A DNA stretch of 64,000 nt from Candidatus Omnitrophota bacterium. GTDB taxonomy: Bacteria > Omnitrophota > Gorgyraeia > Tantalellales > Tantalellaceae. The notes under the pieces were generated by a model, which was not told the DNA's origin, ran no database searches, and saw only the letters and a program-made list of their open reading frames with translations. Every line of letters starts with the position of its first letter. Within the stretch, counting starts at the first letter, position 1. Position numbers and translations under genes: made by a program. The stretch is from NCBI GenBank assembly GCA_035403965.1, contig DAONGE010000001.1, positions 85,008-149,007 on the forward strand. The letters run 5' to 3'. Shown in pieces: positions 4,061 through 24,101 of the stretch.

Positions 4061-5263
4061 CTATTCTTTTTTCACTCTAAAATGCTGATATTGTTTTGAA
4101 GGGCTATTCTGATGTGTATTTATCATATCCGTAAGAAATTTCGATTTTAACATGCCTTCCTCCCATTCTCCCAAAGGGGTGGAATCCCAGACAATGCCGC
4201 CTCCGATACCGAGCTCGCCTTTTCCGTTTTGTAACAGTATGGTGCGTATCGGTATATTAAAATAAAGATCCTTGTGTGGTGTGATATAACCGATCGCGCC
4301 GGTGTAAATTTTTCTGTCGTCGGGTTCAAGGTCTCGTATGATTTGCATAGCTTTAATTTTGGGCGCGCCGGTTACCGATCCGGAGGGGAAGAGATTTGCA
4401 AAAATTTCATAAAGTGAAAGGGGACAGTTAATGGTTCCCTTTACAGTCGATGTCATTTGGAACAATGTGCGGTAGCCTGTTATATCAAACAGCTTAGGGA
4501 CATGGATATTATGGGCGATGCGTCCGAGGTCGTTACGCATGAGATCCGCTATCATAACATTCTCGGCGCGGTTTTTCGCGTCGTACTGGAATTTGAATCT
4601 GTGAAATATATCATGTATCGGGGATTTCCCGCGCGGCCAGGTTCCTTTCATGGGTTTTGTTTCGATATTGGCTCCTGTTTTTTTTAGAAATTTTTCCGGA
4701 GAAAGCGAAAGGATCTGAAATCTCCCAGTGTCGATATACGCATTATACGGAACGGGTTGTTCACGGAAAAGAGAGGAATATAAAGAGAATCTGTCCCCAT
4801 CAAAATCGAATAAATTTTTTATGCAATACGTTATCTGGTAAACATCCCCCGATGCTATATGATCGCGGATGGTCTCTATGTCGGAAAAATATTTTTTCAG
4901 AGAAGTATTGATGCGGAGGTTTTTTATTTTGAAGCTTTTCTTGCGGCAAAATACTGGCTTTGCTCGAAAAACGGGCTTTTCATAGATCCCGAAATATAGA
5001 AGAGGGAACTCTGTCCGGTTTTTAAAATTCAGGCTTTCTTCAAAAGAGTATCCGGATTCATAGGAAAGAAAACCCGCAGCGTAAAATCCGTTACTCAGAC
5101 AACTATCGATCATGTCCAGGCAGGATTTTATTTGATCGTGGTTATGTGTGGATATTATTTGGATGGGAGAAGTAAAATAAAGATCTTTTCTGTCGAATTG
5201 TATCAATATTTGCATATCATGACCTTTTCCGGTCTGGGTGCTTCGTAAGAAGCTTAAGGTCAT
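4061..5263 (-). CDS. chorismate-utilising enzyme, aminodeoxychorismate synthase component I-like (PabB/TrpE family)
   Basis: Conserved chorismate-binding motifs: LSPEKFL, TKPMKGTWPRG (the PIKGT-like lysine favours PabB-type), SGSVTGAPKIKAMQII, GGGIVWDS. At 400 aa the N-terminal domain is short. An alternative start lies at 5215. Confidence 0.6.
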   Translation of the reverse strand: MTLSFLRSTQTGKGHDMQILIQFDRKDLYFTSPIQIISTHNHDQIKSCLDMIDSCLSNGFYAAGFLSYESGYSFEESLNFKNRTEFPLLYFGIYEKPVFRAKPVFCRKKSFKIKNLRINTSLKKYFSDIETIRDHIASGDVYQITYCIKNLFDFDGDRFSLYSSLFREQPVPYNAYIDTGRFQILSLSPEKFLKKTGANIETKPMKGTWPRGKSPIHDIFHRFKFQYDAKNRAENVMIADLMRNDLGRIAHNIHVPKLFDITGYRTLFQMTSTVKGTINCPLSLYEIFANLFPSGSVTGAPKIKAMQIIRDLEPDDRKIYTGAIGYITPHKDLYFNIPIRTILLQNGKGELGIGGGIVWDSTPLGEWEEGMLKSKFLTDMINTHQNSPSKQYQHFRVKKE

Positions 5264-5462
5264 GACCTTTGGATATATTTATGTTTCAGATGGGAAATGG
5301 TATTACATTTTTCCGTTCTTTGCTATTTCTTTTAAGATATCCCGCATTTGTTTCAAATAAGTTACGATCCTTATTTCAAAGGCGAACAAAAGAGAGAACC
5401 CGGCTAGAACTATGATGGAAACCCAAAACATAGAAAGTTCTTTCATATGACTCCTTTAAGTT

Positions 5463-5867
5463 TTACTCTTTCCGCGCATCAATACATTTTTGTAATGTTG
5501 AAATAATAATATAAGGATTGTACGGTTTTGTCAAAAAATCGTCCACGCCGTGTTGTTGGCATTCAGGCATATGTTCGGGATGAGCCGTTAAAACGATTAT
5601 AGCGACTGAATTCTTTTTCGTCACGCCGGATTGTTTTTCGGTGTTTCTGATGTTTTTAAGTACCTGTATTCCGTCAACGACCGGCATCAGTATGTCCAGA
5701 AATATGGCTATGTAGGGGCTATTAAGTTTTTTTGCCATTTGGTAGGCATCAAGGGCTACGGCGCCGTTCGGGGCCTCGTCGCAGGCGAAATCGGGGCCTA
5801 TCTGATGGCGTAATAATTTCCTGTTCGTGGCTTCGTCATCTACGATAAGGATCTTCCACATAATCAC
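5463..5867 (-). CDS. single-domain response regulator (CheY-like receiver)
   Basis: KILIVDDE at the N-terminus, an acidic pocket, the phospho-acceptor Asp in IFLDILMP, and a conserved Thr/Lys layout typical of REC domains. 134 aa with no output domain. Confidence 0.65.
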   Translation of the reverse strand: MIMWKILIVDDEATNRKLLRHQIGPDFACDEAPNGAVALDAYQMAKKLNSPYIAIFLDILMPVVDGIQVLKNIRNTEKQSGVTKKNSVAIIVLTAHPEHMPECQQHGVDDFLTKPYNPYIIISTLQKCIDARKE

Positions 5868-5948
5868 CTCCGAGAATATTATAACATATAAAATAAATAG
5901 AGGCTAATCATCAGCTGATCCTGTTGTTGTGGAGGCGAAGAGAGGATA

Positions 5949-5978
5949 TTGACATTTTGCAGGTGGAAACGGTACAAT
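5949..5978 (+). promoter_or_regulatory. sigma-70-type promoter upstream of the parvulin gene
   Basis: TTGACA (5949-5954), an 18-nt spacer, then TACAAT (5973-5978). An AAAGGAA ribosome-binding site lies 6 nt before the GTG start at 6013. Confidence 0.45.
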
Positions 5979-6012
5979 CTATCTTCTTGGCAACTAAAAA
6001 GAAAGGAATATC

Positions 6013-6294
6013 GTGAAGAAAGCTAAAGCAAGGCATATTTTAGTGTCATCCGCGGAGAAATGCGAAGAACTCAAAAAAAGGATAACCTCCGGTGAGGATT
6101 TCGCGAAGGTAGCGAAAGAATGTTCATTATGTCCGTCCGGGAGGACCGGCGGCGATCTGGGCGAATTCTGCCAGGGCGATATGGTGCCTGAGTTCGATAA
6201 AGTTGTATTCAGCGCCGAAATAGGCAAGGTCCACGGCCCCGTTAAAACCGATTTCGGGTATCACCTTATTGAGGTCACAAAACGGGTGGATTAA
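6013..6294 (+). CDS. ppiC: parvulin-type peptidyl-prolyl cis-trans isomerase (PpiC/Par10-like)
   Basis: 93-aa single rotamase domain. ARHILV...GGDLGEF...GYHLIEV are hallmark parvulin motifs. GTG start with a good ribosome-binding site. Confidence 0.75.
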   Translation: MKKAKARHILVSSAEKCEELKKRITSGEDFAKVAKECSLCPSGRTGGDLGEFCQGDMVPEFDKVVFSAEIGKVHGPVKTDFGYHLIEVTKRVD

Positions 6295-6480
6295 GCCGTA
6301 GCGGAGAGCGAAACTATCGGTGAAAAGGTGGTTTATCCGCGTATGAAAGATGCTGACTTTGAACATAGAATTTGGTAATATTATAGCGCTTTATGAGAGG
6401 GGTATTGAATTAAGACCTCTCACCCCTTCAAGGGGTTCGAGGTCCGCTTTTCTTAGTAGAGATTTTATATGTGGAAAAGC

Positions 6481-6570
6481 GGAGGAGTGGCAGAGCGGTC
6501 GATTGCGGCGGTCTTGAAAACCGTTGACCTCGCAAGAGGTCCGTGGGTTCGAATCCTACCTCCTCCGCCA
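6481..6570 (+). tRNA. tRNA-Ser (anticodon TGA)
   Basis: Acceptor stem GGAGGAG/CTCCTCC, discriminator G and an encoded CCA. D-arm GCAGAGCGG. Anticodon stem-loop GCGGT-CTTGAAA-ACCGT places TGA at positions 34-36. The long variable arm (TGACCTCGCAAGAGGTCC) is typical of Ser. T-arm GTGGGTTCGAATCCTAC. Confidence 0.85.
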
Positions 6571-7010
6571 TGAAATGCACAAAAGCGGGAGAAAACTATG
6601 TTTTCTCCCGCTTTTTTTGCATTTCATTCAAACATTGCTTCCATACATATTTTAAACGGGCAATGTTTGCGCCATTCGCTCGCAGCGGTTTTGAAAAGGA
6701 ATTTCAAAACCGCTTTTCACACTCATGCCGGGCGGAGGAGGCAGGGCACCTTCGCTCACCTTGTTCGCTTCGGGGTCCTATCTCCTCCGCCAGAAAAATG
6801 CAAAGGGCGGGTTAAGAATAAATTCTTCCCCGCCCTATTTGCATTTTTCTTAAAACATTGCCTGCCGTTTTGCCACTCGTTGCAATGTTTTGGCATCCGC
6901 TCTTTCGGTTTTTATGAATAAATTCCTAAAAACCTCATTCGCTTCTGCCGGCGGTGTCGGTAGGGCACCTTCGCTCACCTTGTTCGCTTCGGGGTCCTAC
7001 CTCATTCGCC
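6571..7010 (+). repeat. two tandem degenerate ~220-bp units, each ending in a direct repeat of the tRNA-Ser 3' end (att-like)
   Basis: The tRNA 3' end tcctacctcctccgcca (6554-6570) recurs as tcctatctcctccgcca (6776-6792) and tcctacctcattcgcca (6994-7010). A 45-nt block agggcaccttcgctcaccttgttcgcttcggggtcc precedes both copies. Each unit starts with a GC hairpin plus T-run. Confidence 0.6.
6585..6618 (+). terminator. rho-independent terminator after tRNA-Ser
   Basis: Perfect 12-bp stem GCGGGAGAAAAC / GTTTTCTCCCGC with a 2-4-nt loop, followed by TTTTTTT. Confidence 0.65.
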
Positions 7011-7271
7011 AGTTTTATTATGCAATGGGGTATCATTTTAAAGAGATACCCTTTATTATTTCAATAAACAATATCCATCTGTGAGAATACCGTGGAATAA
7101 CCCATTTCTTAACGTAATATGCTTGATACATACTGAAAAACGAGTATTATATATCATTATAATTCCCAGAGATGTCGGTTTGTCTAAAGACCAGTAGATT
7201 AAACTTATTATGGACGAAGTCGTTCATGACCGCGGTAATTAAGCTTTTGCCGCAGAAGGAAGATAATAATT

Positions 7272-8150
7272 ATGAGCGGAGAGCCGATCCATTTAAAAAA
7301 TACGGCGTTAGCTATAACCGAGCGATGCACCCTCAGGTGTAAATTGTGTTTCGCCTATATACCGTACCATGATAACCCGCAGGATATTACTATTGATGTG
7401 CTCGACACGATTTTACGGCGATATTTTTCTATTGTATCAAGCGTGGATCATTTTTGTGTAACGGGAGGGGAGCCATTAGTGCATCCGCATTTGTGCGCTA
7501 TTTTAAATATGATAAACGGGTATTCGGGACAGATAAACAAAACGATAGACATTATAACCAATGGGACATTGGACATTAAGGATGATGTACTCGGATTTTT
7601 GAAGCAGAACAAAGATAAAACACGTGTTATTATCAGTGACTACGGCAAATATTCTCCTAAAACAAAGACTTTAGAGGAACGATTGCGTTCTTCGGGGATA
7701 ATTGTCAGGATAGAAAGATATGCCGCGGATGATCCGCTTTATGGCGGATGGATAGATTGCAGGGATCATTCTTTGAAACACTTTACGCAGGAAGAAATTG
7801 ACAGACAAGGGAAACACTGTTATTTCAAAAATAAAAGAGGGTATACTATCCGTAAAGGGGAATTGCATAACTGCGGACGGTCATATTGGCGAATGCTGAA
7901 GAATATTATTCCGCGCAATCCGGAGGAATATCTGAATTTGCTGGATATGGAGACGCCGATCGAACATCAGCGCGAAATATTGAGAAAATTGCATAAAAAG
8001 GACAGTGTAACCAGTTGCGCGTATTGTTGGGGAGCGAATGCCCGGAGTAAGAGATATAAGCCGGCCGAACAACTTCCGGCCAAAGTTAATAGATGGTCGA
8101 TAAAATACATAAGAGATCGGTTTTTTTCAAAGTGGCTTAGAACCTGGTAA
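7272..8150 (+). CDS. radical SAM protein, small paralog A (CxxxCxxC near the N-terminus, C-terminal Cys cluster)
   Basis: ITERCTLRCKLC gives the canonical CxxxCxxC motif. GGEPLVHP is the glycine-rich SAM motif. A TNGTL motif is present. Four further Cys are conserved with paralog C (HCYF, HNCGR, SCAYCWGA). A ribosome-binding site AAGGAAG precedes the start. Confidence 0.7.
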   Translation: MSGEPIHLKNTALAITERCTLRCKLCFAYIPYHDNPQDITIDVLDTILRRYFSIVSSVDHFCVTGGEPLVHPHLCAILNMINGYSGQINKTIDIITNGTLDIKDDVLGFLKQNKDKTRVIISDYGKYSPKTKTLEERLRSSGIIVRIERYAADDPLYGGWIDCRDHSLKHFTQEEIDRQGKHCYFKNKRGYTIRKGELHNCGRSYWRMLKNIIPRNPEEYLNLLDMETPIEHQREILRKLHKKDSVTSCAYCWGANARSKRYKPAEQLPAKVNRWSIKYIRDRFFSKWLRTW

Positions 8151-8170
8151 AAAAGGCGAAAAGAGGAAGC

Positions 8171-8836
8171 ATGACAGACGGGCCCTTGCGTTTTAAACAT
8201 ATGGCATTGTGTATAACCGAGCGGTGTACGTTAAAATGTAAACTATGCCATGCGCATATACCGTATCATGATGATCCGCGCGACATGACGCTTGATGAGG
8301 TCGAAACCGTCCTTCATAGGCTTTTTTCGATAATAGAAAGTGTGGACGCTTTTGACATAGCGGGCGGGGAACCTTTGCTTCATCCGGACTTAGCCACTAT
8401 ATTAAAAATCGTTGATAAATATTCCAACCAAATAAACAGGACCATCGATATCACTACTAACGGCACGTTAGAAATGACGGATGAAACCGTTGATTTTTTC
8501 AGGGCCAGAAAAGACCGGACCCGCGTGATAATCAGCGATTACGGCAAATATTCCCCTAAAGCCAGACTATTAGCCGAAAAATTGAGTTCGTTGGGGATAA
8601 ATGTCCGGGTTGACCGTCACTACGGCGATTCCCCGATCTATGGCGGGTGGATAGATGACCGGGATCTTTCGTTGAAATTTTTTACACAACGCGAGATAGA
8701 TGAACACGGAAAAAATTGCTTTTATCGGGAGAAAGGGTGGCCCATAAGGAAAGGCGAGTTGCATAATTGTTCAAGGGGCTACTGGCGAATGCTTAAAAAA
8801 GTTATTCCGCGTAATCCTGTTCGCGGGGTTCAATGA
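8171..8836 (+). CDS. radical SAM protein, small paralog B (C-terminally truncated relative to A and C)
   Basis: ITERCTLKCKLC and GGEPLLHP are present. It is collinear with A and C up to IPRNP, then stops. It lacks the ~55-aa tail that carries the SCAYCxGA pair. It may be a decaying copy. Confidence 0.6.
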   Translation: MTDGPLRFKHMALCITERCTLKCKLCHAHIPYHDDPRDMTLDEVETVLHRLFSIIESVDAFDIAGGEPLLHPDLATILKIVDKYSNQINRTIDITTNGTLEMTDETVDFFRARKDRTRVIISDYGKYSPKARLLAEKLSSLGINVRVDRHYGDSPIYGGWIDDRDLSLKFFTQREIDEHGKNCFYREKGWPIRKGELHNCSRGYWRMLKKVIPRNPVRGVQ

Positions 8837-8879
8837 TAGTGAGATAGGTGTTTAATATCATACTTAAATTTGGGATAGA

Positions 8880-9557
8880 ATGAAGAACAATTCGGTTAAA
8901 TTCGGGTTTTATACGTCAAATCGGGCCACGCGGCTTCGCAAATTTCTTTCAGGCCCGCTTCGCGGGAACTCGATTATTGGAATGGTTTTGCATGACGGGA
9001 TCCCGTCCGATGAGCTTAAAAACTTATGTGATCAGAACGGGATAGACCTTATGGCCGTTGATTACGTTGAGCTTGGTGTTGACAAGAGCCGCCGTAATAA
9101 ATATTTGTCTGATGTTTTATTAGAGCAGCTTGTCGCCCGGGGAGTAGATTATTGTTTTTGTTTTGGGTCATGTATACTGGTCGGGGATCTGTTGCGGGTT
9201 TTTCGTAACAGGATCATCAATTTCCATCCTTCGCTGTTACCGGCGTTCCCCGGCATAAAAGCGGTCGATCAGGCTATTGAATACGGGGCGCGATTTCTGG
9301 GGAATACAGCCCATTTTATAGATGAAGGAGTGGATACCGGGCCCATAATAATGCAGTCCATTATTTCGGCGGAAGCGTTCAGTGGGTATGATTCGGTGCT
9401 TGACCAGCAGTTGCTCATGTTGGCCCAGATCATTAAGTGGTTGGAACAAGGACGGATCGAAGTTAGCGGGAGAAAAGTAAATGTACGCGATGCCGTTTGT
9501 GATGATTTGACCTTTATGCCTAATGTCGAGCCCGATTTGTTACAAAAATTATTGTAG
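8880..9557 (+). CDS. formyltransferase-domain protein (sugar N-formyltransferase-like)
   Basis: INFHPSLLPAFPGIKA and FIDEGVDTGPIIMQ match the catalytic N..H..D signature of the Formyl_trans_N family (PurN/Fmt/ArnA-like). The 225-aa size and glycan-cluster context suggest a sugar formyltransferase. Confidence 0.65.
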   Translation: MKNNSVKFGFYTSNRATRLRKFLSGPLRGNSIIGMVLHDGIPSDELKNLCDQNGIDLMAVDYVELGVDKSRRNKYLSDVLLEQLVARGVDYCFCFGSCILVGDLLRVFRNRIINFHPSLLPAFPGIKAVDQAIEYGARFLGNTAHFIDEGVDTGPIIMQSIISAEAFSGYDSVLDQQLLMLAQIIKWLEQGRIEVSGRKVNVRDAVCDDLTFMPNVEPDLLQKLL

Positions 9558-9603
9558 TCGGGGTAGATCAGACTGACGATGTGTTTTTAGGAGGAACAGA
9601 GAG

Positions 9604-10917
9604 ATGCGGATATTGCTTACCGGACTGATGACAGTGCACTGGGGGAGGCTGGAGAACGGGAATATCGGGAATTACTATATAACCGAAGCCACAATAAGGG
9701 AATTGCACAGGGTTTTTCCGGGAGCCGAGATCGTCACGACCTTTCAAATGTCTGATGAATTCAGCCGCCGGGAAAAAATAAAAGTTTTGCCGATGGATAT
9801 ATTCTATTCATGGAACGAATCGGATCTTGATACATGTTTTAAGGAAATGGGTATCGCCGGGGTCTTTAATTTAGCCGGACACCTGATCGCCTCAACGCCG
9901 TATATCGACGAGGTCATGAAAAGCGACCTTGTTCTGGATTTTAGCGGGGAGATGTGGGGGGATCACGCCGAACCGGTCGGAAAAGACAGGTTTCTGACGG
10001 TTTTAATGAAGGACAGGGTGGCGCAACTTTTAAAAAAACCGGTGGTGCTATTAGCCGGTTCGCAGGGGCCGTTCGATAAAACGGCACATTTGAAGGAGTT
10101 TGCTTCGGCCGTCATAAGTGATTATAAAGCTATTTTGAACAGAGAACCGTCATCGGTCAATGTGCTGAAAGAAAACGGGTTTGATATTAAGAACGTTAAA
10201 AGCTTTACGGATGTGTCTTTTCTTTTTGAGCCCGCGCCTTATGAAGAGATCAAAGAGATCTTAAGGAAGGATTCCATAGTGGCTACGGATAAAAAAACCG
10301 CGGGTTTTATCCTGTGCGGATTCAATATGTTAAGGGGGCCGTATGACGCGGAGCCACGCTCCGACGACGAATTTACGCAGTTCGCGGAGGCGGTGGAGTT
10401 TATAACGGGGGAACTGGGCGCCAGGGTGTTTTTAATGTCGCATCAGAACGGGTTTGTAAAGACCCCGGAATTTAAACTTATCAACGGAAGGGATTATCCT
10501 TACGCGCGGCAATTGTACGATGTCGTGAAAAAAAGGGGGAAAGTGAATATCAGTGACGTGATCCTTGCCAAAGGGCCGTATACGCCTAAGCAGACGATGG
10601 CTATCATCGGCCAGTTCGACATCTTTGTCACGGGCAGGATACACGCGTTTGTGGCAGCGGTTTCGCAAAAAGTCCCGACGGTTATCATCAATAGGGGGCA
10701 TGGGGGAAGGGCGCATCGGAATATAGGGTTTGCGCGAAGCGTCGGCATGGAGGACTATATCGCCGATCCGGCGTCCGCGGACGACTTAAAAACTAGGATC
10801 AAAAAATGCTGGAATAACAGGGAAAAAATAAAAGAGGAATTAAAAAACAGGATCCCGATAGTGAAAGATACCGCCAAAACGATGTTTGATGTTTTAAAAG
10901 AGGCGGTCAGGGTATAG
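9604..10917 (+). CDS. polysaccharide pyruvyl transferase family protein (CsaB/WcaK-like)
   Basis: N-terminal GN.G(N/D) motif (ENGNIGNYYI) and C-terminal TGRIHAFVAAVSQKVPTVII, which resembles the conserved TRLH...G.P motif of pyruvyl transferases. Strong ribosome-binding site AGGAGG. Confidence 0.5.
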   Translation: MRILLTGLMTVHWGRLENGNIGNYYITEATIRELHRVFPGAEIVTTFQMSDEFSRREKIKVLPMDIFYSWNESDLDTCFKEMGIAGVFNLAGHLIASTPYIDEVMKSDLVLDFSGEMWGDHAEPVGKDRFLTVLMKDRVAQLLKKPVVLLAGSQGPFDKTAHLKEFASAVISDYKAILNREPSSVNVLKENGFDIKNVKSFTDVSFLFEPAPYEEIKEILRKDSIVATDKKTAGFILCGFNMLRGPYDAEPRSDDEFTQFAEAVEFITGELGARVFLMSHQNGFVKTPEFKLINGRDYPYARQLYDVVKKRGKVNISDVILAKGPYTPKQTMAIIGQFDIFVTGRIHAFVAAVSQKVPTVIINRGHGGRAHRNIGFARSVGMEDYIADPASADDLKTRIKKCWNNREKIKEELKNRIPIVKDTAKTMFDVLKEAVRV

Positions 10918-10921
10918 AGAT

Positions 10922-11632
10922 ATGAAGATCGCCATTATGCAGCCGTATTTTTTTCCGTATCTGGGATATTTTAGTTTGATAAAACATACGGATCGGTTCA
11001 TCTTGCTGGATGAGGTTCAGTATATTCGTCACGGATGGATCGACAGGAACAGGATACTTAAACCTGGAGGAGGATGGCAGTATATCAAAGTTCCCGTAAG
11101 AAAGCACGCACGGGATACAAGTATCAAAAATATCAGGATCAATAATGATCTCGACTGGAGAACTAAAATGCTGGGGCAATTGCAGCATTATAAAAAGAAT
11201 GCTCCGAATTTCGCCCGGGTGGAAAAGATAATGGAAAAGGTATTGGTGAGTGAATATGATTCTATCGTTCAGCTAAATCTCGCCGGGCTTAAGGCGATCT
11301 GCGAATATTTAAAAATATATCCGGTTTTACAAATATTTTCCGAAGAGAGGTTTGCCATAGACCCCCCTAATGAACCGGATGAATGGGCGTTGAATATATG
11401 CAAAGCGATACCCGGCGTGAAAGAGTATTGGAATCCTCCCGGGGCACGGGATCTGTTCGATAGAAAAAAATATCGCTCCGGCTCGATAGAACTTAGGTTT
11501 CTCGAAAATCGTTTGCGCCGGTATGACCAAAAACGAACGGTTTTTGAGCCGGGTTTATCTATTATAGATGTTTTGATGTTCAATGACCCGGATCATGTAA
11601 ACTTAATGTTGGACGATTTTGTCCTTGATTGA
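10922..11632 (+). CDS. WbqC-like family protein (O-antigen/glycan cluster accessory protein)
   Basis: N-terminus MKIAIMQPYFFPYLGYFSLI...FILLDEVQY...DRNRIL...VPV matches the hallmark WbqC-like family N-terminal signature. Confidence 0.6.
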   Translation: MKIAIMQPYFFPYLGYFSLIKHTDRFILLDEVQYIRHGWIDRNRILKPGGGWQYIKVPVRKHARDTSIKNIRINNDLDWRTKMLGQLQHYKKNAPNFARVEKIMEKVLVSEYDSIVQLNLAGLKAICEYLKIYPVLQIFSEERFAIDPPNEPDEWALNICKAIPGVKEYWNPPGARDLFDRKKYRSGSIELRFLENRLRRYDQKRTVFEPGLSIIDVLMFNDPDHVNLMLDDFVLD

Positions 11633-11688
11633 CGCCGGGATTATTTTAATAATAGCAAGCGGGATAAATTGGAAAAGGTGGAGTAGCT

Positions 11689-12492
11689 ATGGGCATGATA
11701 CAATTGCAACGATCCGCGATAGCCGTAACGCAGCGTTGTACTTTAAGATGCAAGTTGTGTAACGCGTATATGCCGTATTATGTTAAACCGGCGGATATGC
11801 TTTTTGACAAGATAGAAAAAGTCCTGGATAGGTATTTTTTAATCGTGGACAAAGTGGGCATATTCGGCGTGCTGGGAGGGGAACCGTTGTTGCATCCGGA
11901 TATAGCGAAGATCCTGAAAAAAATAAATTCGTATACCGATCAAATTTCCGAACGGATAGATCTGGTGACCAATGGTACGCTGGACATGGATGATGAGACA
12001 TTCGCTTTTTTTGTCGATAACGCGCCAAAGGCCAAGGTCATTATCAGCCACTATGGCAAGCATTCCCCGAAAGCCGATATCCTCGCTAAAAAACTCGAAG
12101 CCCATGGCGCGAATTACAGGGTAGCCGTCTATCACGGAGAGGATCTGTTGTACGGCGGGTGGATAGATTATAGGGATCATTCAAAAAAACATTTTACTCA
12201 GGAGGACATTGATCGGCAGGGGCGGAATTGCATTGTAAGGAAAGGGCAGTATTATCTGATCAGCGAAGGCGAAATGCATACCTGCACAAGGGCGCACTGG
12301 CGCATGCGGCAGGGGATAATTCCCCGTAATGCGGACGAATATTTGAATCTGCTCGACGATACTATATCCGTGGAAAAACAAAGGGAGATTTTGAGCAGGA
12401 TAGACAGCCGGGTTAGCATGACATCTTGTGCTTATTGCGAAGGCGCAAGTAATGAAAGCAAGCGATATCAACCCGCAGAGCAGTTAAAATAA
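11689..12492 (+). CDS. radical SAM protein, small paralog C
   Basis: VTQRCTLRCKLCNAYMPYY (CxxxCxxC), GGEPLLHP and TNGTL are present. The C-terminal Cys (NCIV, HTCTR, SCAYCEGA) and the final KRYQPAEQL are shared with paralog A. Confidence 0.7.
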   Translation: MGMIQLQRSAIAVTQRCTLRCKLCNAYMPYYVKPADMLFDKIEKVLDRYFLIVDKVGIFGVLGGEPLLHPDIAKILKKINSYTDQISERIDLVTNGTLDMDDETFAFFVDNAPKAKVIISHYGKHSPKADILAKKLEAHGANYRVAVYHGEDLLYGGWIDYRDHSKKHFTQEDIDRQGRNCIVRKGQYYLISEGEMHTCTRAHWRMRQGIIPRNADEYLNLLDDTISVEKQREILSRIDSRVSMTSCAYCEGASNESKRYQPAEQLK

Positions 12493-12601: not shown

Positions 12602-13699
12602 ATGATGGTGAAACAAGAAAATGAGAAGATAAATGTCACCAGAACGTATTTGCCGGATAGGGGGAAATTATCCAAATATATTAATAAGGTATATGATTCC
12701 GGGTGGATAACAAACAATGGAGAGTTTTGTAAAGAACTCGAACTTAGATTAAAGAATTACTTAGGCGTTAGGAACTTAATTCTTGTAGCAAATGGGACTT
12801 TGGCGTTACAGCTTGCGTATAAGGCTTTAGATGTAAAAGAAAAGGCCATAACTACTCCGTTTAGTTTTGTCGCTACGACTAATTCGTTACTATGGGAAAG
12901 GATAGAACCGGTATTTGCCGATATAGATCCGAGGAAATGGACTATTTCTCCGGAACAGATCGAAAAAAACATGACCCCGGAGATTACCGGCATTGTGCCG
13001 GTACATGTGTTCGGGAATGCTTGTGATGTTGAGGATATAAAGAGGATAGCGGACAAAAATGGATTAAAGGTTATTTATGATGCGGCGCATGCTTTTGGGG
13101 TTAAATATAAAGGAAAGTCTTTGTTCGAATGGGGCGATGTTTCCGTTTTGAGTTTCCATGCCACTAAACTTTTTCATACTATAGAGGGAGGCGCTGTTAT
13201 TACGGCGGATGACGAGATCGCCGATAAGATCAGGCTTTTCAGGAATTTTGGCATTACAGGGCAGGAGAGCGTAAAGTGTGTCGGGATAAACGCAAAGATG
13301 AATGAATTTCAGGCCATAATGGGGCTTTGTGTTTTGGATGACATAGAGGAAATAAGTGAGAAAAGAAAGAAAGTTTGGATGAGCTATTATAATAAGTTGA
13401 AGGACATCGTAAACTTACAAGAGATAAATAAAAAAGGGAGTAACAATTATGGTTATTTTCCGATTTTATTTAAAAATGAAACGACAGCAATAAAAGCGCA
13501 GAAAAAACTGAATAATAAAAACATATTTCCAAGAAGATATTTTTATCCTTCCTTAGATACGTTGCCTTATGTTGATCACGGGCCTGAAATGGCCGTATCA
13601 AGAGACGTGGCAAGCCGGGTTTTGTGTTTGCCAATGCATGGGGAGATAACAGAGCAGACGATTGCAGTAGTTTGTAAGGAAATAGAATCCCAGAATTGA
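12602..13699 (+). CDS. DegT/DnrJ/EryC1/StrS-family PLP-dependent sugar aminotransferase
   Basis: Characteristic family layout. The PLP-binding lysine lies in SFHATKLF. Ribosome-binding site TAGGAG. Confidence 0.8.
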   Translation: MMVKQENEKINVTRTYLPDRGKLSKYINKVYDSGWITNNGEFCKELELRLKNYLGVRNLILVANGTLALQLAYKALDVKEKAITTPFSFVATTNSLLWERIEPVFADIDPRKWTISPEQIEKNMTPEITGIVPVHVFGNACDVEDIKRIADKNGLKVIYDAAHAFGVKYKGKSLFEWGDVSVLSFHATKLFHTIEGGAVITADDEIADKIRLFRNFGITGQESVKCVGINAKMNEFQAIMGLCVLDDIEEISEKRKKVWMSYYNKLKDIVNLQEINKKGSNNYGYFPILFKNETTAIKAQKKLNNKNIFPRRYFYPSLDTLPYVDHGPEMAVSRDVASRVLCLPMHGEITEQTIAVVCKEIESQN

Positions 13700-13736: not shown

Positions 13737-14915
13737 TTGTCGTTGTGTCGATCCGGGAAAAATACAAGGGCAGAGGTAATAATAACTCATTTTATGCTGG
13801 AGGGTGGGGGTGTGAATTTTTTTGAACTGTTACTAATGGAGATATTGAACAGTCAATATAACTATTTCACCGATAATTATGACCAGAATAGGTTCGGTCG
13901 AAAATCGTACAGAAGAATGGTTTACGAACAGGTTTTAAGTGTGGTCAATAGTGTCATGCGTTATCTAGGCGTGTATTATTATAGAACCGGTTACAAGAAG
14001 AATATAGGGGCTATAAGAAATATTGGCGGTTATTTTGACGCATTCAATAGTGTGTATGATTTGTTGGAAGATGATTATTCCAAGAAGTTACTTGTTAAGA
14101 TAATCGCCTACAGGATAATGGGCGAAAAAAAGGTTAAACTGCCTTTGAATAACCCGACCTATTGGGATCATATAAAGAAAATTAAGAGCATAGTTTCCAA
14201 AACTGATAAATTGTGTATAGATTTTTTAGGTTGGGAACTTAATAGGATAGATCTCAACCTGTTAAATATTCCGGTTGTCTATTTTTCACGGCCTACCGGG
14301 GCGGCCTTGTTATGGTTTCTGCGGCTCTACCAGGGAGGTCCTGGCAAAACGATAAGAGTGCGTCCGGGAGATGTAGTTATAGACTGCGGCTGTTGCTGGG
14401 GAGATACTGCGCTTAAGTTCGCTTTTGATGCGGGTAGGAAGGGACATATTTACTCTTTTGAAATTAACCAGAAAAACATTGAGGTTGCAACGAGAAATTT
14501 TGAACTTAATCCCGTACTGAAAGCTAACATTCAGCTTATTAATGCTGCGTTGTGGCATGAAAGTGACAAAGAGATTTTAGTCGACGATAATGGTCCGGGG
14601 TCAGCTTTTACGATCAAGAATACAAAGAATAACATTGTTGCAAAAACTCTAACGATCGATGATTTTGTCGAGCGATGGAATATTAGACAGGTGAATTTTA
14701 TAAAAATGGATATTGAAGGTGCGGAATTGAAGGCCCTGGAAGGTGCAAAAAAAACCATCCAGAAATTTAAGCCTAAATTGGCGATATCTCTTTATCATAC
14801 TTTGGATGATTTTGTAAATATTCCCAAGTTTGTAAAAGAAGTGAATAAAGACTATAAATTATACGTAGAACATTTTTCTATCCACAGAGAAGAAACTGTT
14901 CTTTTTGCAGGTTAA
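13737..14915 (+). CDS. FkbM-family methyltransferase
   Basis: VIDCGCCWGDTALKFA is the SAM-binding motif and FIKMDIEGAELKALEGA is the conserved FkbM/Methyltransf_21 block. The start is uncertain: 13737 is TTG, and ATG alternatives lie at 13794 and 13836. Confidence 0.6.
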   Translation: MSLCRSGKNTRAEVIITHFMLEGGGVNFFELLLMEILNSQYNYFTDNYDQNRFGRKSYRRMVYEQVLSVVNSVMRYLGVYYYRTGYKKNIGAIRNIGGYFDAFNSVYDLLEDDYSKKLLVKIIAYRIMGEKKVKLPLNNPTYWDHIKKIKSIVSKTDKLCIDFLGWELNRIDLNLLNIPVVYFSRPTGAALLWFLRLYQGGPGKTIRVRPGDVVIDCGCCWGDTALKFAFDAGRKGHIYSFEINQKNIEVATRNFELNPVLKANIQLINAALWHESDKEILVDDNGPGSAFTIKNTKNNIVAKTLTIDDFVERWNIRQVNFIKMDIEGAELKALEGAKKTIQKFKPKLAISLYHTLDDFVNIPKFVKEVNKDYKLYVEHFSIHREETVLFAG

Positions 14916-14970
14916 TGGTAGACTGGCTATTCTGTTGCTATGGGGTGTAGTGTCATTGCGAAGGGAAAAT

Positions 14971-15930
14971 ATGCTGGATAGAACGCAAGAATCAATCATG
15001 AAAAATTGGAATAGAGTGGGGCCGCCTCTGGTTAGTATTGCGTGCACAACGTTTAATCATGAAAAATTCATCGCGGAAACCATTGAAAGCTTTCTCATGC
15101 AGTGTACTAATTTCCCGTTCGAGATAATCATTCACGATGATGCTTCTACGGATTCCACCAAAGAGATAATCAAGTCGTATATGGAGAGATATCCCGATAT
15201 AATTAAGCCGATATTTCAGACGGTTAACCAAAGTTCGCAAAGAAAAAGTTGTTTTAGCATTGTTATAAGCCATGGCCGCGGGAAATATATCGCTCTTTGC
15301 GAGGGAGACGATTTCTGGGCCGACCCTGAAAAACTTCAATTGCAAGTTGACTACCTTGAGGCACATCCGGAGTGTGTTGTGTGTTATCATGATGCTATGA
15401 TAGTAAATGATGAGGGTAAATTGATCAAAGCATCCAAGATGCCGGCAAATTTCAAAAGAGATTGCACGGACTGGGAGTTAGCTAGCGGTTTTTTTATTTC
15501 TACGCTTACAATGGTTTTTAGAAATGTAATAAAGGAATTCCCGTACGAAATGTCGAATTGTAAATACGGCGATATTTTTCTCACTTCTCTTTTAGGAGGT
15601 TATGGCAAAGGCAAGTATCTTGGAAATATTAAACCGGGTGTTTATAGGGTCCACCACGGATCGATTTGTTCGACCGCTTCTCCACAGAATTTTAATATTT
15701 ATTTTTTCACTTCGCATTATTGGATCTCAGAATACTACCGTAGAATAGGCAATATTAAATTATCGCGGGTATATGGCCGATCAATGGTCAGGTGCTTATT
15801 GAACAATATGATCAGGCCTTATATGGGTCTTAAAGATATGATCTTAATCCTACTGCCGCCTTGGCTGGCAAGGCGGGCATGTAAAGTGTATGATGTTTTG
15901 TGCGGAAGATATTTTGGCCGCAGGCTTTAA
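14971..15930 (+). CDS. family 2 glycosyltransferase
   Basis: VSIACTTFNHEKFIAETIESFLMQ...EIIIHDDASTDST is the GT2 N-terminal signature with a DxD-type motif. The ORF track start at 14905 overlaps the upstream gene, so ATG 14971 is preferred. Confidence 0.7.
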   Translation: MLDRTQESIMKNWNRVGPPLVSIACTTFNHEKFIAETIESFLMQCTNFPFEIIIHDDASTDSTKEIIKSYMERYPDIIKPIFQTVNQSSQRKSCFSIVISHGRGKYIALCEGDDFWADPEKLQLQVDYLEAHPECVVCYHDAMIVNDEGKLIKASKMPANFKRDCTDWELASGFFISTLTMVFRNVIKEFPYEMSNCKYGDIFLTSLLGGYGKGKYLGNIKPGVYRVHHGSICSTASPQNFNIYFFTSHYWISEYYRRIGNIKLSRVYGRSMVRCLLNNMIRPYMGLKDMILILLPPWLARRACKVYDVLCGRYFGRRL

Positions 15931-19143: not shown

Positions 19144-20586
19144 ATGAATGATGTTAAACGCGGTCGAGTACTTCTTGTATATCCGGCATACATAGGGGAG
19201 ATCGGAAAACCTGATCGTCCGCCGCTTGGCCTTTTGACGATTGCGGCCCCTCTTGTGGAAAAAGGGGTTGAGGTATGCCTTCTTGATGAGAGGGCGGATA
19301 GAGAGGATTTTGATTCTAAGCTTGTAGCAGAACTCAAGAAAAATCCAATTTGTGTCGGTATTAGTTCAATGAGCGGCCGCCACATAGCGGGTGCGTTGCG
19401 TGTTAGTAAACTTGTCAAAGAAAATTCAGATGTGCCGGTTGTTTGGGGTGGGGTGCATCCTTCTCTTGAACCCGAATCTACCATTCGACATCCGCTGGTG
19501 GATATTATCGTTAGAGACGATGGCGAGGAAACATTCCAGGAACTTTTGGAAGCACTTAAAGATCCCAATTGCGATCTAAGTAAGATCAACGGAATAGGTT
19601 TCAAGGATAGCGACGGTAAGGTCGTGCTTACGGAGCTATCGTCCCCCGCGGATATCTCTAAAATACCGTATATACCATATCATCTTGTTGATTTTGACAG
19701 GTATGAATCTAAGGATCCATGGACAATCGGCCGCGGCCTTATCCCGATGGAAACGAGTCGCGGATGTCCTTTTAGGTGTTCTTTTTGCACCGAATCCGTC
19801 AGGAAGAAGAAATGGCGCTCCCTTCCTCCGGAACGAGTTATCAACGACATAAAGTACTATATTGAGAAGTACGGGATATATAATTACACCTTTATTGATG
19901 ATAACCTTTTCGGAAATATAAAACGTGGTGAAGATCTGATAGATCTTTTGGCGAAAGAGGATCTTGGTATCAGATGGTATACGAACATCCGCACGGATTA
20001 TATGTCCAGGGCAACGCCTGAATTTCTGCAAAAACTTGAGAAAGCGGGATGTTGTATGCTGACATTCGGTGCCGAGTCCGGGTCGGAGCGGATACTGAAA
20101 ATGATAAGTAAACATGCCACTCAAGAGCATGTAATAAAGACAAATTTGAATTTAAACAGAGTGAATATCTCCCCGCACTATGTTACGATCCGTGGGTTCC
20201 CGACGGAAACCGGCAAGGACATGCTGGATACTTATCTATTGCTTATTCGTTTGGTCCTGGATAATAAAAAGGCTATTTGTGATTCGCCTTTTTTAATACC
20301 TACTCCGGGTACGCAGATATTCAGACAGTGTTTTCAAGACGCATCGGAGAGAGACCGGGATCTTACCCTTGAAAAATGGGCGGAGGCCTTTGACCTTGAG
20401 AAAATGGGATGTCCGATGTGGTTGGATCCAAAAACGTTCAGCGTGATAAAACACTATAAATGGCTGGTAGGGATCATACAAAAAACTAACCGGCGAAAAA
20501 CGGGGTGGCTGAAAAATGGCATCTATCGATTGTTTCTCAGACTTATGTATAAGGTGATCTATCTGCAAAGGGGCTTTTTAAAATGA
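19144..20586 (+). CDS. B12-binding-domain radical SAM protein (class B)
   Basis: An N-terminal cobalamin-binding-like Rossmann region (RVLLVYPAY...GISSMSG...VVWGGVHPS) is followed by ETSRGCPFRCSFC (CxxxCxxC). Confidence 0.75.
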   Translation: MNDVKRGRVLLVYPAYIGEIGKPDRPPLGLLTIAAPLVEKGVEVCLLDERADREDFDSKLVAELKKNPICVGISSMSGRHIAGALRVSKLVKENSDVPVVWGGVHPSLEPESTIRHPLVDIIVRDDGEETFQELLEALKDPNCDLSKINGIGFKDSDGKVVLTELSSPADISKIPYIPYHLVDFDRYESKDPWTIGRGLIPMETSRGCPFRCSFCTESVRKKKWRSLPPERVINDIKYYIEKYGIYNYTFIDDNLFGNIKRGEDLIDLLAKEDLGIRWYTNIRTDYMSRATPEFLQKLEKAGCCMLTFGAESGSERILKMISKHATQEHVIKTNLNLNRVNISPHYVTIRGFPTETGKDMLDTYLLLIRLVLDNKKAICDSPFLIPTPGTQIFRQCFQDASERDRDLTLEKWAEAFDLEKMGCPMWLDPKTFSVIKHYKWLVGIIQKTNRRKTGWLKNGIYRLFLRLMYKVIYLQRGFLK

Positions 20587-21668: not shown

Positions 21669-22545
21669 GAAATTGAATAATATAAAGCGGTTCGTAAAAG
21701 CGGTAGTTCCGCCGATCTTTATAATTTTGTTAGATAAAGTGAAAAAATATTTTGCGGATCGCGGCAAAACGGAATTTGAGTATATACCGGAAGGGTGGTC
21801 GTATGTCGCTAAGCCCGGCGCAATGGATGGGTGGAATGAAAAGTCGATCTTAGAGGTTTATAAAAAAGAATGGCCTAAATATTTGTCGATGACGAGCTCC
21901 ACCGCGCCCTTATACAGCAATCCAGCCGCTCCTTATAGTAGTGATATAAATACCCGGGTAAAAGGCCATAATGTGATAATGTCGTTCGCGTATTCTGTTT
22001 TGACCGCGGCCGGCGGAAAGAAGTCGCTATCACTGTTTGATTGGGGGGGCGGGATCGGATTTTATTCTTTATTTGCCAAGGCCATACTTCCCGGGGTTGA
22101 TATACAATATAGTTGTCGTGATATGGATGTGTTCGTTAAACATGCGAACGAAAATACGCCCAACGCTTTATTTTACTCGGATGATTCGTGGATAAAGAAT
22201 AAGTATGATTTTGTCATGGCGAGCGCCTCGGTCCAGTATAAAACGGAATGGAAGGAACTGCTCAGGGATCTGGTCAGCGTAGCGTCGGGTTATGTATACA
22301 TCGCGCAGCTGCCGGTTGTTCCGAAAGAAAAATCGTTCGTGTTCATACAGCGCCCTTATAAATACGGTTATAACACGGAGTATCTGGGGTGGTGTCTGAA
22401 TAAGAAAGAATTTCTTTCGTGCGCGAAAGACCTCGGGCTGGAATTAGTCAGGGAATTCACGTATGGATATGAATTGCCTATTTTAAACGCCCCGGAACAA
22501 AACGAGTATTCGGGGTTTTTATTTTTTAAGAAGGGAACAGCATGA
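21640..22545 (+). CDS. hypothetical protein, putative methyltransferase-like
   Basis: LSLFDWGGGIGFYSLFA is glycine-rich and motif-I-like, and YDFVMASASVQY is present. Weak assignment. Overlaps neighbours at both ends. Confidence 0.35.
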   Translation: MSRRLSMGNKKLNNIKRFVKAVVPPIFIILLDKVKKYFADRGKTEFEYIPEGWSYVAKPGAMDGWNEKSILEVYKKEWPKYLSMTSSTAPLYSNPAAPYSSDINTRVKGHNVIMSFAYSVLTAAGGKKSLSLFDWGGGIGFYSLFAKAILPGVDIQYSCRDMDVFVKHANENTPNALFYSDDSWIKNKYDFVMASASVQYKTEWKELLRDLVSVASGYVYIAQLPVVPKEKSFVFIQRPYKYGYNTEYLGWCLNKKEFLSCAKDLGLELVREFTYGYELPILNAPEQNEYSGFLFFKKGTA

Positions 22546-24101
22546 GAATTATCTCAGGCAATGTGACAGGGCCGGTTGTTTTGGTTTCTCGTCCTATAAA
22601 GTATACGTTCCCGCTGTCGTATGCGTACCTTGCGGGGTATTTGAAAGAACAGGGAGAGGAAGTAAAAATCCTCTTTAGGCCCACGGTCGATAAAGCTGAA
22701 GATTTTGCCAAAGAGATAATCGGTATGAATCCGGTATTGGTAGGGTTCGGGAATTTATATCCAGAGTTGAAAGAAATATCGGCGTTTATAAAATGTCTGG
22801 ATAATGCGGGACGAAAATTTCCGATAGTTATCGGCGGGCAAATGGTATCTCCCATACCGGAATTTGCGGTGCGTATTACCGGGGCGGATATAGGAGTAAT
22901 AGGTGAAGGTGAAATAATTTTGCACAATGTAGTAAAGGCCCTGAGGGAAGGAAGTAACATAAAAGAAGTAAAGGGGTTGGCGGTCAGAGAGGGAAACGAG
23001 GTTTTTTTGACAGGACCGGGAGAGGTGATCCCGGATCTGGATAAACTTCCGAAAATACCGTATGAATTTTTCCCGGAAAAAGAGTGGCTTAATATAGGCC
23101 GATGGTATACGCGATATCATCAGCAACCTCATTGGCATTTTGACGACAGGGTGATAAACGCCCATTCCGGAAGAGGCTGTCCGTACACATGTAATTTTTG
23201 TTATCACCATAGTAAGCCCAGATATAGATCCATGGGCGTCGTGATGGATGAAGCCCGGGAAGCGTTAGAGAGATTTAACGGTAACATGCTCTATTTTTCG
23301 GACGAGACCGCGCTCGCTTCCCCGAAACGTGTAAGGGAAATGATAGACGGTATAAGAAATTTGCCCCGGCGCATAGAGTTTTCGGTGTCGTGCCGTTTCG
23401 ATATCTTAAGCAGAATAGACGATGCGGTGCTTCGGGAAATGAAAGACGCGGGATGTCGGATAATGGGGCTTGGAATAGAATCCGGATCGGACCGTATTCT
23501 GCAGATAATAGGAAAAAGATATCCCGCGAATATTATACGGGAAGGATTGGATCGGCTTAAAAAGGCAGGGATCTTACCGACGGTATCAATAATGGTAGGG
23601 CAATACACCGAGACCGTGGAGGATGTCGAAATGTCGATCGATCTGATGCGAGAGTCGGTAAGAAATAATCATAACATACAGTATGCGTTCACGGTCACGA
23701 CGCCGTTTCCGGGGTCAGCCCTATATGAGCATATATTCAAAACAGGTTTATTAAAAGACGACCGGGAATTTTATGATATATATTTTAAAAGTAGAAAAGA
23801 GTTTCAGTATGTGGTTAATTTATCAAAAATGAGCGACGCGGAGTTAATGCGGATGTATCAGAAGATACTGGAAGAGTATAATAAGGAAAAAGAGAAGGTA
23901 TTAAATAAAAAAGCCGTAGTTGTGGAAAAAACAATGATAAATGTGAGTAAAGCGTACGAGATATTTATGACGCGTTTATTCGGGGGATTAGCCGCTAAAA
24001 ATGCGATAGCCGACAAATTCTGCCGTTTTTGCGAATTTTTATTTGTGGCGATCGAAGTGTGGCTTGACGGGATACGGCTTAAGATCAGGGGGCTGAGGTG
24101 A
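22542..24101 (+). CDS. B12-binding-domain radical SAM protein (class B), second copy
   Basis: N-terminal B12-like region (PVLVGFGNLY...VIGGQMVSP) and HSGRGCPYTCNFC (CxxxCxxC). ATGA overlap with the upstream gene. Confidence 0.75.
   Translation: MRIISGNVTGPVVLVSRPIKYTFPLSYAYLAGYLKEQGEEVKILFRPTVDKAEDFAKEIIGMNPVLVGFGNLYPELKEISAFIKCLDNAGRKFPIVIGGQMVSPIPEFAVRITGADIGVIGEGEIILHNVVKALREGSNIKEVKGLAVREGNEVFLTGPGEVIPDLDKLPKIPYEFFPEKEWLNIGRWYTRYHQQPHWHFDDRVINAHSGRGCPYTCNFCYHHSKPRYRSMGVVMDEAREALERFNGNMLYFSDETALASPKRVREMIDGIRNLPRRIEFSVSCRFDILSRIDDAVLREMKDAGCRIMGLGIESGSDRILQIIGKRYPANIIREGLDRLKKAGILPTVSIMVGQYTETVEDVEMSIDLMRESVRNNHNIQYAFTVTTPFPGSALYEHIFKTGLLKDDREFYDIYFKSRKEFQYVVNLSKMSDAELMRMYQKILEEYNKEKEKVLNKKAVVVEKTMINVSKAYEIFMTRLFGGLAAKNAIADKFCRFCEFLFVAIEVWLDGIRLKIRGLR

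Follow-up and report, generated by a model that had tools for sequence, protein, structure and literature searches.

Putative twitch-domain radical SAM enzymes in surface-glycan gene cassettes of anaerobic bacteria

A stretch of 64,000 nt from a Candidatus Omnitrophota genome (contig DAONGE010000001.1, positions 85,008 to 149,007; the whole stretch is called here the window) carries three related genes for small radical S-adenosylmethionine (SAM) proteins, copies A, B and C, next to genes for a formyltransferase, a pyruvyl transferase, a WbqC protein and a sugar aminotransferase. The locus raises two questions: what such proteins may do in this company, and what to make of copy B, which is short. 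Very probably A, B and C are radical SAM enzymes of a minimal (~270 aa) twitch-domain type and tailor the sugars of surface glycans in anaerobes. The narrower assignment as alcohol dehydrogenases, with an auxiliary cluster as electron acceptor, is tentative, as it draws on a predicted structure and on analogy. The entire scheme, in which twitch radical SAM sugar enzymes make keto-sugars for a cassette pathway and copy B is disabled, has about even chances of being right. Twitch radical SAM enzymes acting on carbohydrates are known; new are the family and its surface-glycan setting in anaerobes.

Three paralogs and their C-terminal cysteines

The three open reading frames (ORFs) are collinear paralogs, as reported in the initial annotation of this DNA, and their coordinates and strand were verified (Table 1). 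Identity is 60–61% between A and B, 53% between A and C, and 50% between B and C (tblastn E values 1e-72 to 1e-96). No fourth copy was detected by tblastn, and the copies in the 64-kb window are exactly three. Each is preceded by a Shine-Dalgarno-like sequence, and features the N-terminal CxxxCxxC motif about 17 residues from the start, a GGEPL-type motif and TNGT. Longer motifs had been drawn too uniformly. ITERCTL(R/K)CKLC does not hold for copy C, which reads VTQRCTLRCKLC, nor GGEPLLHP for copy A, which reads GGEPLVHP. An R(Y)xPAEQ tail is found in both A and C, but it is not the end of copy A, where KRYKPAEQL is followed by 24 residues (8079–8150) forming a basic/aromatic extension, PAKVNRWSIKYIRDRFFSKWLRTW, found in no other aligned family member. 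A protein identical to copy A (P0018), from a Candidatus Omnitrophota metagenome-assembled genome (MAG), is named 'radical SAM protein' at NCBI.

Membership in the radical SAM superfamily is clear, as all copies score 42.7–45.5 bits against PF04055 (gathering cutoff 29.5). The Pfam match covers the radical SAM core only, in the N-terminal ~100 aa, and matches in PDB sequence and profile searches are likewise limited to the N-terminus. The best NCBIfam match, MoaA (TIGR02666), reaches 46–55 bits against a cutoff of 284; NF033640, 'twitch domain-containing radical SAM protein', is matched partially, at 22–30 bits against 170. NCBIfam models of SPASM proteins score far under cutoff, at the N-terminus only. 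Among the families considered, MoaA, NrdG, QueE, viperin and SPASM maturases yielded only generic matches to the N-terminal core (Pfam, NCBIfam and PDB sequence searches), and the proteins do not fall among the glycyl-radical-enzyme activases (PFL-AE, NrdG). No hidden Markov model (HMM) assigns the copies to a characterised non-glycan family, an outcome that the initial annotation had named beforehand as refuting its proposal.

Homologs were aligned in a set of 32, and then in a set of 156 sequences made up of the three window copies and 153 full-length representatives; residues are numbered as in copy C. Seven cysteines, three in the SAM-cluster motif and four beyond it, are 100% conserved across the 156 members, copy B alone departing from this by the loss of the last two. 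In the same alignment Y122, G157-W158, GGE and Q265 are invariant or nearly so. The four additional cysteines already noticed in A and C correspond to C181, C199, C247 and C250. Lack of conservation of the C-terminal cysteines in orthologs had been named in advance as a reason to abandon the proposal; the alignment shows them conserved.

A model of copy C was built with AlphaFold2 on the 32-sequence alignment (pLDDT 95.2, pTM 0.92). It features a partial TIM-barrel core followed by a C-terminal segment holding the four invariant cysteines: C181 precedes a beta-hairpin (E188–192, E195–197), C199 follows it, and C247 and C250 reside in the last helix. This layout is said to be that of the twitch domain in the BtrN structure. 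The top fold matches to the model are twitch enzymes, SpeY being the nearest (Foldseek: E 4e-13, TM 0.75/0.68). The predicted structure thus supports the view of the four C-terminal cysteines as a twitch-type auxiliary [4Fe-4S] site, arranged as in BtrN and SpeY. A twitch domain is a shortened form of the SPASM domain, and binds one auxiliary cluster (PMC9012708). A short C-terminal extension with a cysteine-flanked beta-hairpin is found in A and C; copy B lacks two of the four ligands. The initial annotation had suggested a twitch- or SPASM-like site. The invariant cysteines and the predicted hairpin and helix placement favour the former. The SPASM assignment was discarded, as only four cysteines follow the core, and the 7-Cys motif including CX2CX5CX3C is missing.

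A possible marker of reaction type was also considered, namely a putative hydrogen-donor position in GGWID[C/Y/D]RD (Cys in A, Tyr in C, Asp in B) that might tell epimerase from dehydrogenase paralogs. It was rejected as a family rule because this position is variously F, Y, L or C in the 156-sequence alignment.

Glycan cassettes across anaerobes

An exhaustive profile search over 1.84 billion representatives, clustered at 50% identity, gave 3786 clusters at E<=1e-10, of which 1176 reach E<=1e-30. With few exceptions the members measure 260–290 aa and match end to end. The impression of a tiny family (~34 relatives) given by a word-indexed search was an artefact of the word index. In databases the proteins bear no label beyond 'radical SAM protein' or 'organic radical activating enzyme'; we found no curated model or structure for the family, and no paper on it, or on a link between radical SAM proteins and pyruvyl transferases. 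The family is uncharacterised, yet it is not rare, nor is it confined to this genome. When species-representative genomes were scanned, 42 loci came up, and every host is anaerobic. Cultured hosts are Lachnoclostridium phytofermentans, Kineothrix alysoides, Marinisporobacter balticus, Lachnospiraceae 28-4, Flavonifractor, Anaerobacterium chartisolvens and Ruminiclostridium cellobioparum. Among them, L. phytofermentans, Kineothrix, Flavonifractor and Ruminiclostridium are gut or cellulolytic Clostridia. Hosts known from MAGs have been assigned to Roseburia, Faecalibacterium, Spirochaetaceae, Synergistaceae, Gastranaerophilales/Melainabacteria and Dysgonamonadaceae.

Neighbours of the 42 loci were counted by phmmer within 8 kb on either side. 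Family 2 glycosyltransferases (GT2) are found at 32 loci, polysaccharide pyruvyl transferases (PS_pyruv_trans, hereafter PyrT) at 29, NTP_transferase proteins at 21, FkbM methyltransferases at 15, WbqC proteins and FrhB-like Fe-S flavoproteins at 11 each, DegT aminotransferases at 10, hexapeptide acyltransferases at 9, and GNAT proteins at 7. PyrT, which 6 of 8 metagenomic contexts also contain, is the family's most constant enzymatic partner. Most loci (25) have one radical SAM gene (rSAM), others two (10 loci), three (6) or five (1). Three types of cassette can be distinguished. The first, to which the window belongs, is DegT-PyrT-WbqC-(GNAT/FormT)-rSAM, FormT being the formyltransferase; the second is NTP-GT2-(Hexa)-FrhB-rSAM(1-3)-GT2-PyrT, the third NTP-GT2-FkbM-rSAM, where NTP and Hexa denote the NTP_transferase and the hexapeptide acyltransferase.

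The gene set of the window is found again on other contigs. One Omnitrophota-like contig (L001) carries, in order, FkbM, DegT, two rSAMs, FormT, PyrT, WbqC, a third rSAM and four GT2 genes; a second (L004) has a similar gene set. In the latter, a low-coverage long-read contig, the middle rSAM (138 aa, 5590–6006) and PyrT (195 + 278 aa, 7034–8459) are split, probably by sequencing frameshifts rather than decay. In Lachnospiraceae 28-4 (L030), DegT, WbqC, three full-length rSAMs, FkbM and GT2 accompany a PyrT::FormT fusion of 658 aa (4384–6360 of the locus); the two genes are separate and adjacent in the window. L. phytofermentans has a compact cassette of 8 kb, PyrT-WbqC-GNAT-rSAM-GT2-DegT-MT-GT (MT, methyltransferase; GT, glycosyltransferase), with housekeeping genes on both sides; its rSAM is P0319, at 7989–8792 of L019.

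Family members are also fused to their partners, as in PyrT+rSAM (P0041, a single representative, known from its protein sequence), FrhB+rSAM (P0081), rSAM+GT2 (P0180, P0187) and GNAT+rSAM (L007, P0062), or to each other, as in the tandem rSAM-rSAM proteins P0043, P0166, P0167 and P0184. The initial annotation had favoured a sugar context over one of peptides made by ribosomes and modified after translation (RiPPs); nearly every locus examined is a glycan cluster, and this setting, seen across ~50 loci in several phyla and backed by the fusions, bears the view out.

In some distant members (P0035-38) the N-terminus is a PglD_N/C2185-like domain. The same C2185-like_N (PF22674)/PglD_N-like domain was observed on FkbM, TylF and GT2 proteins as on distant rSAMs (L007, L015, P0036), and looks like a shared substrate- or carrier-binding module, judging from its distribution. 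A distant cassette (L008) combines three rSAMs with PyrT, a hexapeptide acyltransferase, an FrhB-like protein and GT2; a flagellin gene (9804–11471) 3 kb downstream of it hints at flagellin glycosylation in this organism.

Relationships among paralogs were analysed in a neighbour-joining, distance-based tree without bootstrap. The rSAM triplets of two Lachnospiraceae loci (L030, L026) form three orthologous pairs. The window copies cluster apart from them, C branching first, then A from B. Sets of several paralogs per cassette therefore arose more than once, and this repeated origin suggests that the paralogs have distinct rather than redundant roles.

The genes flanking the window copies (formyltransferase, pyruvyl transferase, WbqC and DegT), named in the initial annotation, were verified by Pfam. 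Gaps in the array measure 4–109 nt, and with a ribosome-binding site (RBS) at each rSAM the array looks like one operon. Among the proteins that the predicted fold of WbqC recalls, BshC and MshC are Cys:amino-sugar ligases.

Table 1. Features of the window, in window coordinates
Feature	Position	Strand	Length	Remarks
tRNA-Ser(tga)	6481–6570
Direct repeat, first copy	6731–6793		63 nt
Direct repeat, second copy	6950–7012		63 nt
Radical SAM copy A	7272–8150	+	292 aa	Full length; CxxxCxxC C19/C23/C26; auxiliary Cys C183, C201, C248, C251
Radical SAM copy B	8171–8836	+	221 aa	Truncated after IPRNP; SAM-cluster motif and first two auxiliary Cys kept
Radical SAM copy C	11689–12492	+	267 aa	Full length; CxxxCxxC C17/C21/C24; auxiliary Cys C181, C199, C247, C250
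PurN-like formyltransferase, N-terminal domain type	8880–9557	+	225 aa	PF00551 3.5e-22; NFHPSLLP, DxGxII; NCBIfam PurN-like under cutoff
Polysaccharide pyruvyl transferase (PS_pyruv_trans)	9604–10917	+	437 aa	PF04230 7e-24
WbqC family protein	10922–11632	+	236 aa	Predicted fold like class-I aminoacyl-tRNA synthetase catalytic domains, BshC, MshC
DegT/DnrJ/EryC1 sugar aminotransferase	12602–13699	+	365 aa	PF01041 1e-92; best named relative DesI-type 4-keto-6-deoxyhexose aminotransferase (TIGR04427, 283 bits, under the cutoff of 650)
FkbM-family methyltransferase	13737–14915	+		PF05050 4.6e-19; also in the L001, L004 and L030 cassettes
Family 2 glycosyltransferase (GT2)	14905–15930	+		PF00535 4.9e-22; immediately downstream of the cassette
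B12-binding (class B) radical SAM protein	19144–20586
B12-binding (class B) radical SAM protein	22542–24101
SDR epimerase/dehydratase	25068–26054			SDR, short-chain dehydrogenase/reductase
Second DegT	27696–28802
Large GT2	28799–30808

Copy A is preceded, at a distance of ~700 nt, by the tRNA-Ser gene, which stands at the beginning of a glycan region of ~25 kb and may mark an island boundary; Rfam found nothing but a tRNA in the whole window. Between this tRNA gene and copy A, a 63-nt direct repeat occurs twice (89% identity); either copy can fold into a hairpin with arms of 20 nt, and no further copies were found in the window. The ~700-nt gap holds these hairpin repeats and no conserved small ORF, in agreement with the earlier statement that no precursor peptide lies nearby. 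Farther downstream, the pair of B12-binding radical SAM genes adjoins those of a Glyco_trans_1_2 protein and of another FkbM methyltransferase; counting A, B and C, the locus thus encodes five radical SAM enzymes. The SDR, the second DegT and the large GT2 follow, and the glycan region extends to ~32.5 kb of the window.

The shortened copy B

Copy B terminates in IPRNPVRGVQ*, right after IPRNP as first described; ~50 C-terminal residues, the CxxC pair and the R..PAEQ tail among them, are missing. It starts 20 nt after copy A, and 43 nt separate it from the formyltransferase gene. No relic of the missing part was found elsewhere in the window. With so little room and no relic, the ~50 codons must have been deleted, rather than shifted out of frame. 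An identical 221-aa copy B, in the same A-B-FormT order, recurs on at least 7 contigs that come from different samples and assemblers. On these grounds neither an assembly error nor a frameshift was accepted as the cause.

Comparison with relatives, which the initial annotation had called for, shows that the truncation is lineage-specific. The nearest relative of copy B (P0019, 66% identity) is full length, as are the other 70-odd relatives, contig-end fragments aside. A conserved subfamily of short forms was accordingly rejected, the sole other short form being P0131 (226 aa), an independently truncated member that ends almost at the same residue. The P0131 gene (L060-L062) is cut by unrelated inserted DNA, in which a GC-rich hairpin and the start of a new gene are present. 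The four contigs involved are all <3 kb, and the three examined break off 38–208 nt past the stop codon, a pattern suggestive of a repeat or mobile element. This second short form looks accidental.

Between the two readings offered at first, a decaying pseudogene or a variant devoid of the auxiliary cluster, the degenerate one is favoured. Copy B is a real allele and, judging from the sequence comparisons, probably a recently disabled copy in one lineage; disablement is preferred because the auxiliary cluster of BtrN is catalytically essential (PMC10337720). It is rather unlikely, though by no means far-fetched, that copy B instead functions without an auxiliary cluster, or serves A or C as a partner subunit with no catalysis of its own. 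The ORF is intact, with a good RBS, in an operon-like array, and the allele is fixed on the contigs from different samples mentioned above. Within its length copy B retains 40 of 43 positions that are >=90% conserved; yet its three substitutions at such positions compare with 0–2 in A, C and three relatives. The tandem rSAM-rSAM fusions point to joint action of paralogs and, with the intact ORF, speak for a possible partner-subunit role. Against a functional copy B stand the CxxC pair kept in all other 155 aligned members, the full length of every relative, the essential cluster of BtrN, and the foreign DNA that cuts the only other short form.

Candidate chemistries and known counterparts

In the dehydrogenase scheme, the reduced SAM cluster would cleave SAM to a 5'-deoxyadenosyl radical, and this would abstract a hydrogen from a carbinol carbon of the sugar, which is probably nucleotide-activated. 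The auxiliary cluster would accept the second electron, leaving a keto-sugar formed in an oxygen-independent manner. In cassettes of the window type the neighbouring DegT would aminate the keto-sugar; the BshC/MshC-like WbqC would then acylate the amine with an amino acid, and a formyl- or acetyltransferase (FormT or GNAT) would cap the acylated amine. Further decoration of the sugar would fall to PyrT and the FkbM methyltransferase, and its transfer would be the task of GT2. Several paralogs in a cassette may serve different positions or intermediates, or act jointly. The order DegT, WbqC, FormT/GNAT is read in this way because the O antigen of Escherichia coli O121, the strain from which the wbq gene names come, has amide-linked N-acetylglycine (PMC7685785). 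In the L. phytofermentans cassette no SDR dehydratase or dehydrogenase was found besides the rSAM, which is therefore the only in-cassette candidate for supplying the keto substrate of DegT.

Several points weigh against this scheme. With 19% identity, a similar fold leaves the chemistry undecided, and the twitch enzyme HygY changed from epimerase to dehydrogenase by a single Cys mutation, as worded in a title cited in PMC10991966. DegT is near only 10 of the 42 loci, and ketone supply for transamination is thus not the general role. The most constant partner, PyrT, is left unexplained by a dehydrogenase. In the window the SDR epimerase/dehydratase could itself supply a keto-sugar, and the second DegT makes the keto-supply fit incomplete. 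Finally, the well-kept copy B, with its RBS and place in the array, may still be expressed and useful.

The enzymes could be radical SAM sugar epimerases like HygY and NeoN, taking hydrogen from a ring C-H and delivering hydrogen on the other face. With several paralogs, several centres would be inverted, to yield rare sugars, and the occurrence of one to five paralogs per cassette fits such a role; the invariant Y122 could donate the hydrogen. The HygY title cited in PMC10991966 places epimerase and dehydrogenases on a common twitch fold, and NeoN is described in that source as a radical SAM epimerase of an aminoglycoside sugar. We consider epimerisation unlikely on balance, since no family-wide conserved Cys exists besides the seven cluster ligands in the 156 members, the position occupied by Cys in the A clade being the variable one noted above, and since the closest matches among the solved structures compared, SpeY and BtrN, are both dehydrogenases.

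If the enzymes act on the (enol)pyruvyl group that PyrT attaches, the constancy of this partner, both at genome loci and in metagenomic contexts, would be explained. A radical C-C bond between a sugar carbon and the enol-ether carbon, or redox tailoring of the ketal, may be envisaged; PolH forms a C-C bond by radical chemistry with enolpyruvyl-uridine monophosphate. The direct PyrT-rSAM fusion and the FrhB-like Fe-S flavoproteins, recurrent as neighbours and fusion partners, point in the same direction. In contrast, 13 of the 42 loci have no PyrT within 8 kb, cassettes of the third type being devoid of it, the top fold matches include no relative with such chemistry, and the fusion is a single representative known as a protein sequence. 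This reading is therefore quite improbable. About equally improbable is its extended form, in which rSAM and PyrT constitute a two-enzyme module, sometimes fused, for radical chemistry on enolpyruvyl- or pyruvyl-sugars. If true, a C-C bond, for example, would lead to branched, bicyclic or higher-carbon acidic sugars, a type so far undescribed in bacterial surface glycans; the makers would be gut Lachnospiraceae, Roseburia and Faecalibacterium, as well as environmental anaerobes, and the paralogs would carry out successive radical steps.

There is little to recommend a role on the aminoacyl substituent attached by WbqC (L-to-D epimerisation or oxidation), in the manner of peptide-modifying twitch/SPASM enzymes. 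That the proteins are RiPP or protein maturases, or glycyl-radical-enzyme activases, merely located in a glycan cluster, is highly improbable: sub-threshold NCBIfam best matches include peptide maturases, MoaA and NrdG, and one homolog is labelled 'organic radical activating enzyme' at JGI, but no precursor gene is evident in the gap upstream, no N-terminal extension for a peptide-recognition (RRE) domain is found (the motif starts at residue ~17), and the glycan context is conserved.

The initial annotation had proposed a candidate for novel carbohydrate radical chemistry. An uncharacterised family in a sugar context is indeed at hand; the chemistry proper is proposed by analogy. If the proteins are oxygen- and NAD-independent sugar oxidoreductases or epimerases, they would provide an unrecognised route to modified sugars in the surface polysaccharides of anaerobes. 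The tight tie to pyruvyl transferases points to glycan structures so far undescribed. Cultured hosts and the compact 8-kb cassette make the question directly testable.

Among known enzymes, SpeY (PDB 7wzv, 7wzx, 7x0b, deposited as 'Twitch Radical SAM Dehydrogenase') and BtrN (PDB 4m7t, 4m7s) come closest. SpeY acts in spectinomycin biosynthesis. Overall fold and size agree with alcohol dehydrogenases of the SpeY/BtrN type; at the sequence level the proteins are set apart, as identity is 17–19%, significant profile-to-sequence similarity to SpeY spans only the first ~100 residues (profile positions 15–102), and BtrN had no match in HMM and sequence searches with the family. SpeY belongs to an actinomycete antibiotic pathway, whereas the family resides in surface-glycan cassettes of anaerobes, with PyrT, WbqC and GT2.

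BtrN is the 2-deoxy-scyllo-inosamine dehydrogenase of butirosin biosynthesis and, like the family, a minimal twitch enzyme (~250 aa). The ketone made by BtrN is then aminated by a DegT-family aminotransferase, a pathway logic that resembles DegT adjoining the radical SAM genes in the window. BtrN oxidises an alcohol to a ketone (PMC10337720; PMC9012708). Its radical SAM cysteines are 16/20/23 (PMC9012708), those of copy C 17/21/24; its auxiliary [4Fe-4S] cluster has four Cys ligands (PMC9012708), matching the four invariant cysteines, and, besides being essential, has a proposed role in electron transfer (PMC10337720; PMC9012708). DesII and DesI form another pair of radical SAM enzyme and DegT-family aminotransferase on a nucleotide sugar, DesII being the TDP-4-amino-4,6-dideoxyglucose deaminase; the DesI model is the one against which the window DegT scores best in NCBIfam. 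HygY and NeoN use a catalytic Cys as hydrogen donor, which has no family-wide counterpart here. Both act on sugars, and indicate, as far as the wording in PMC10991966 goes, that the scaffold can epimerise rather than oxidise.

To our knowledge, sugar-acting radical SAM enzymes come almost wholly from antibiotic pathways (BtrN, SpeY, DesII, NeoN, HygY, BlsE). In contrast, the present family is a standard part of surface-glycan cassettes in strict anaerobes.

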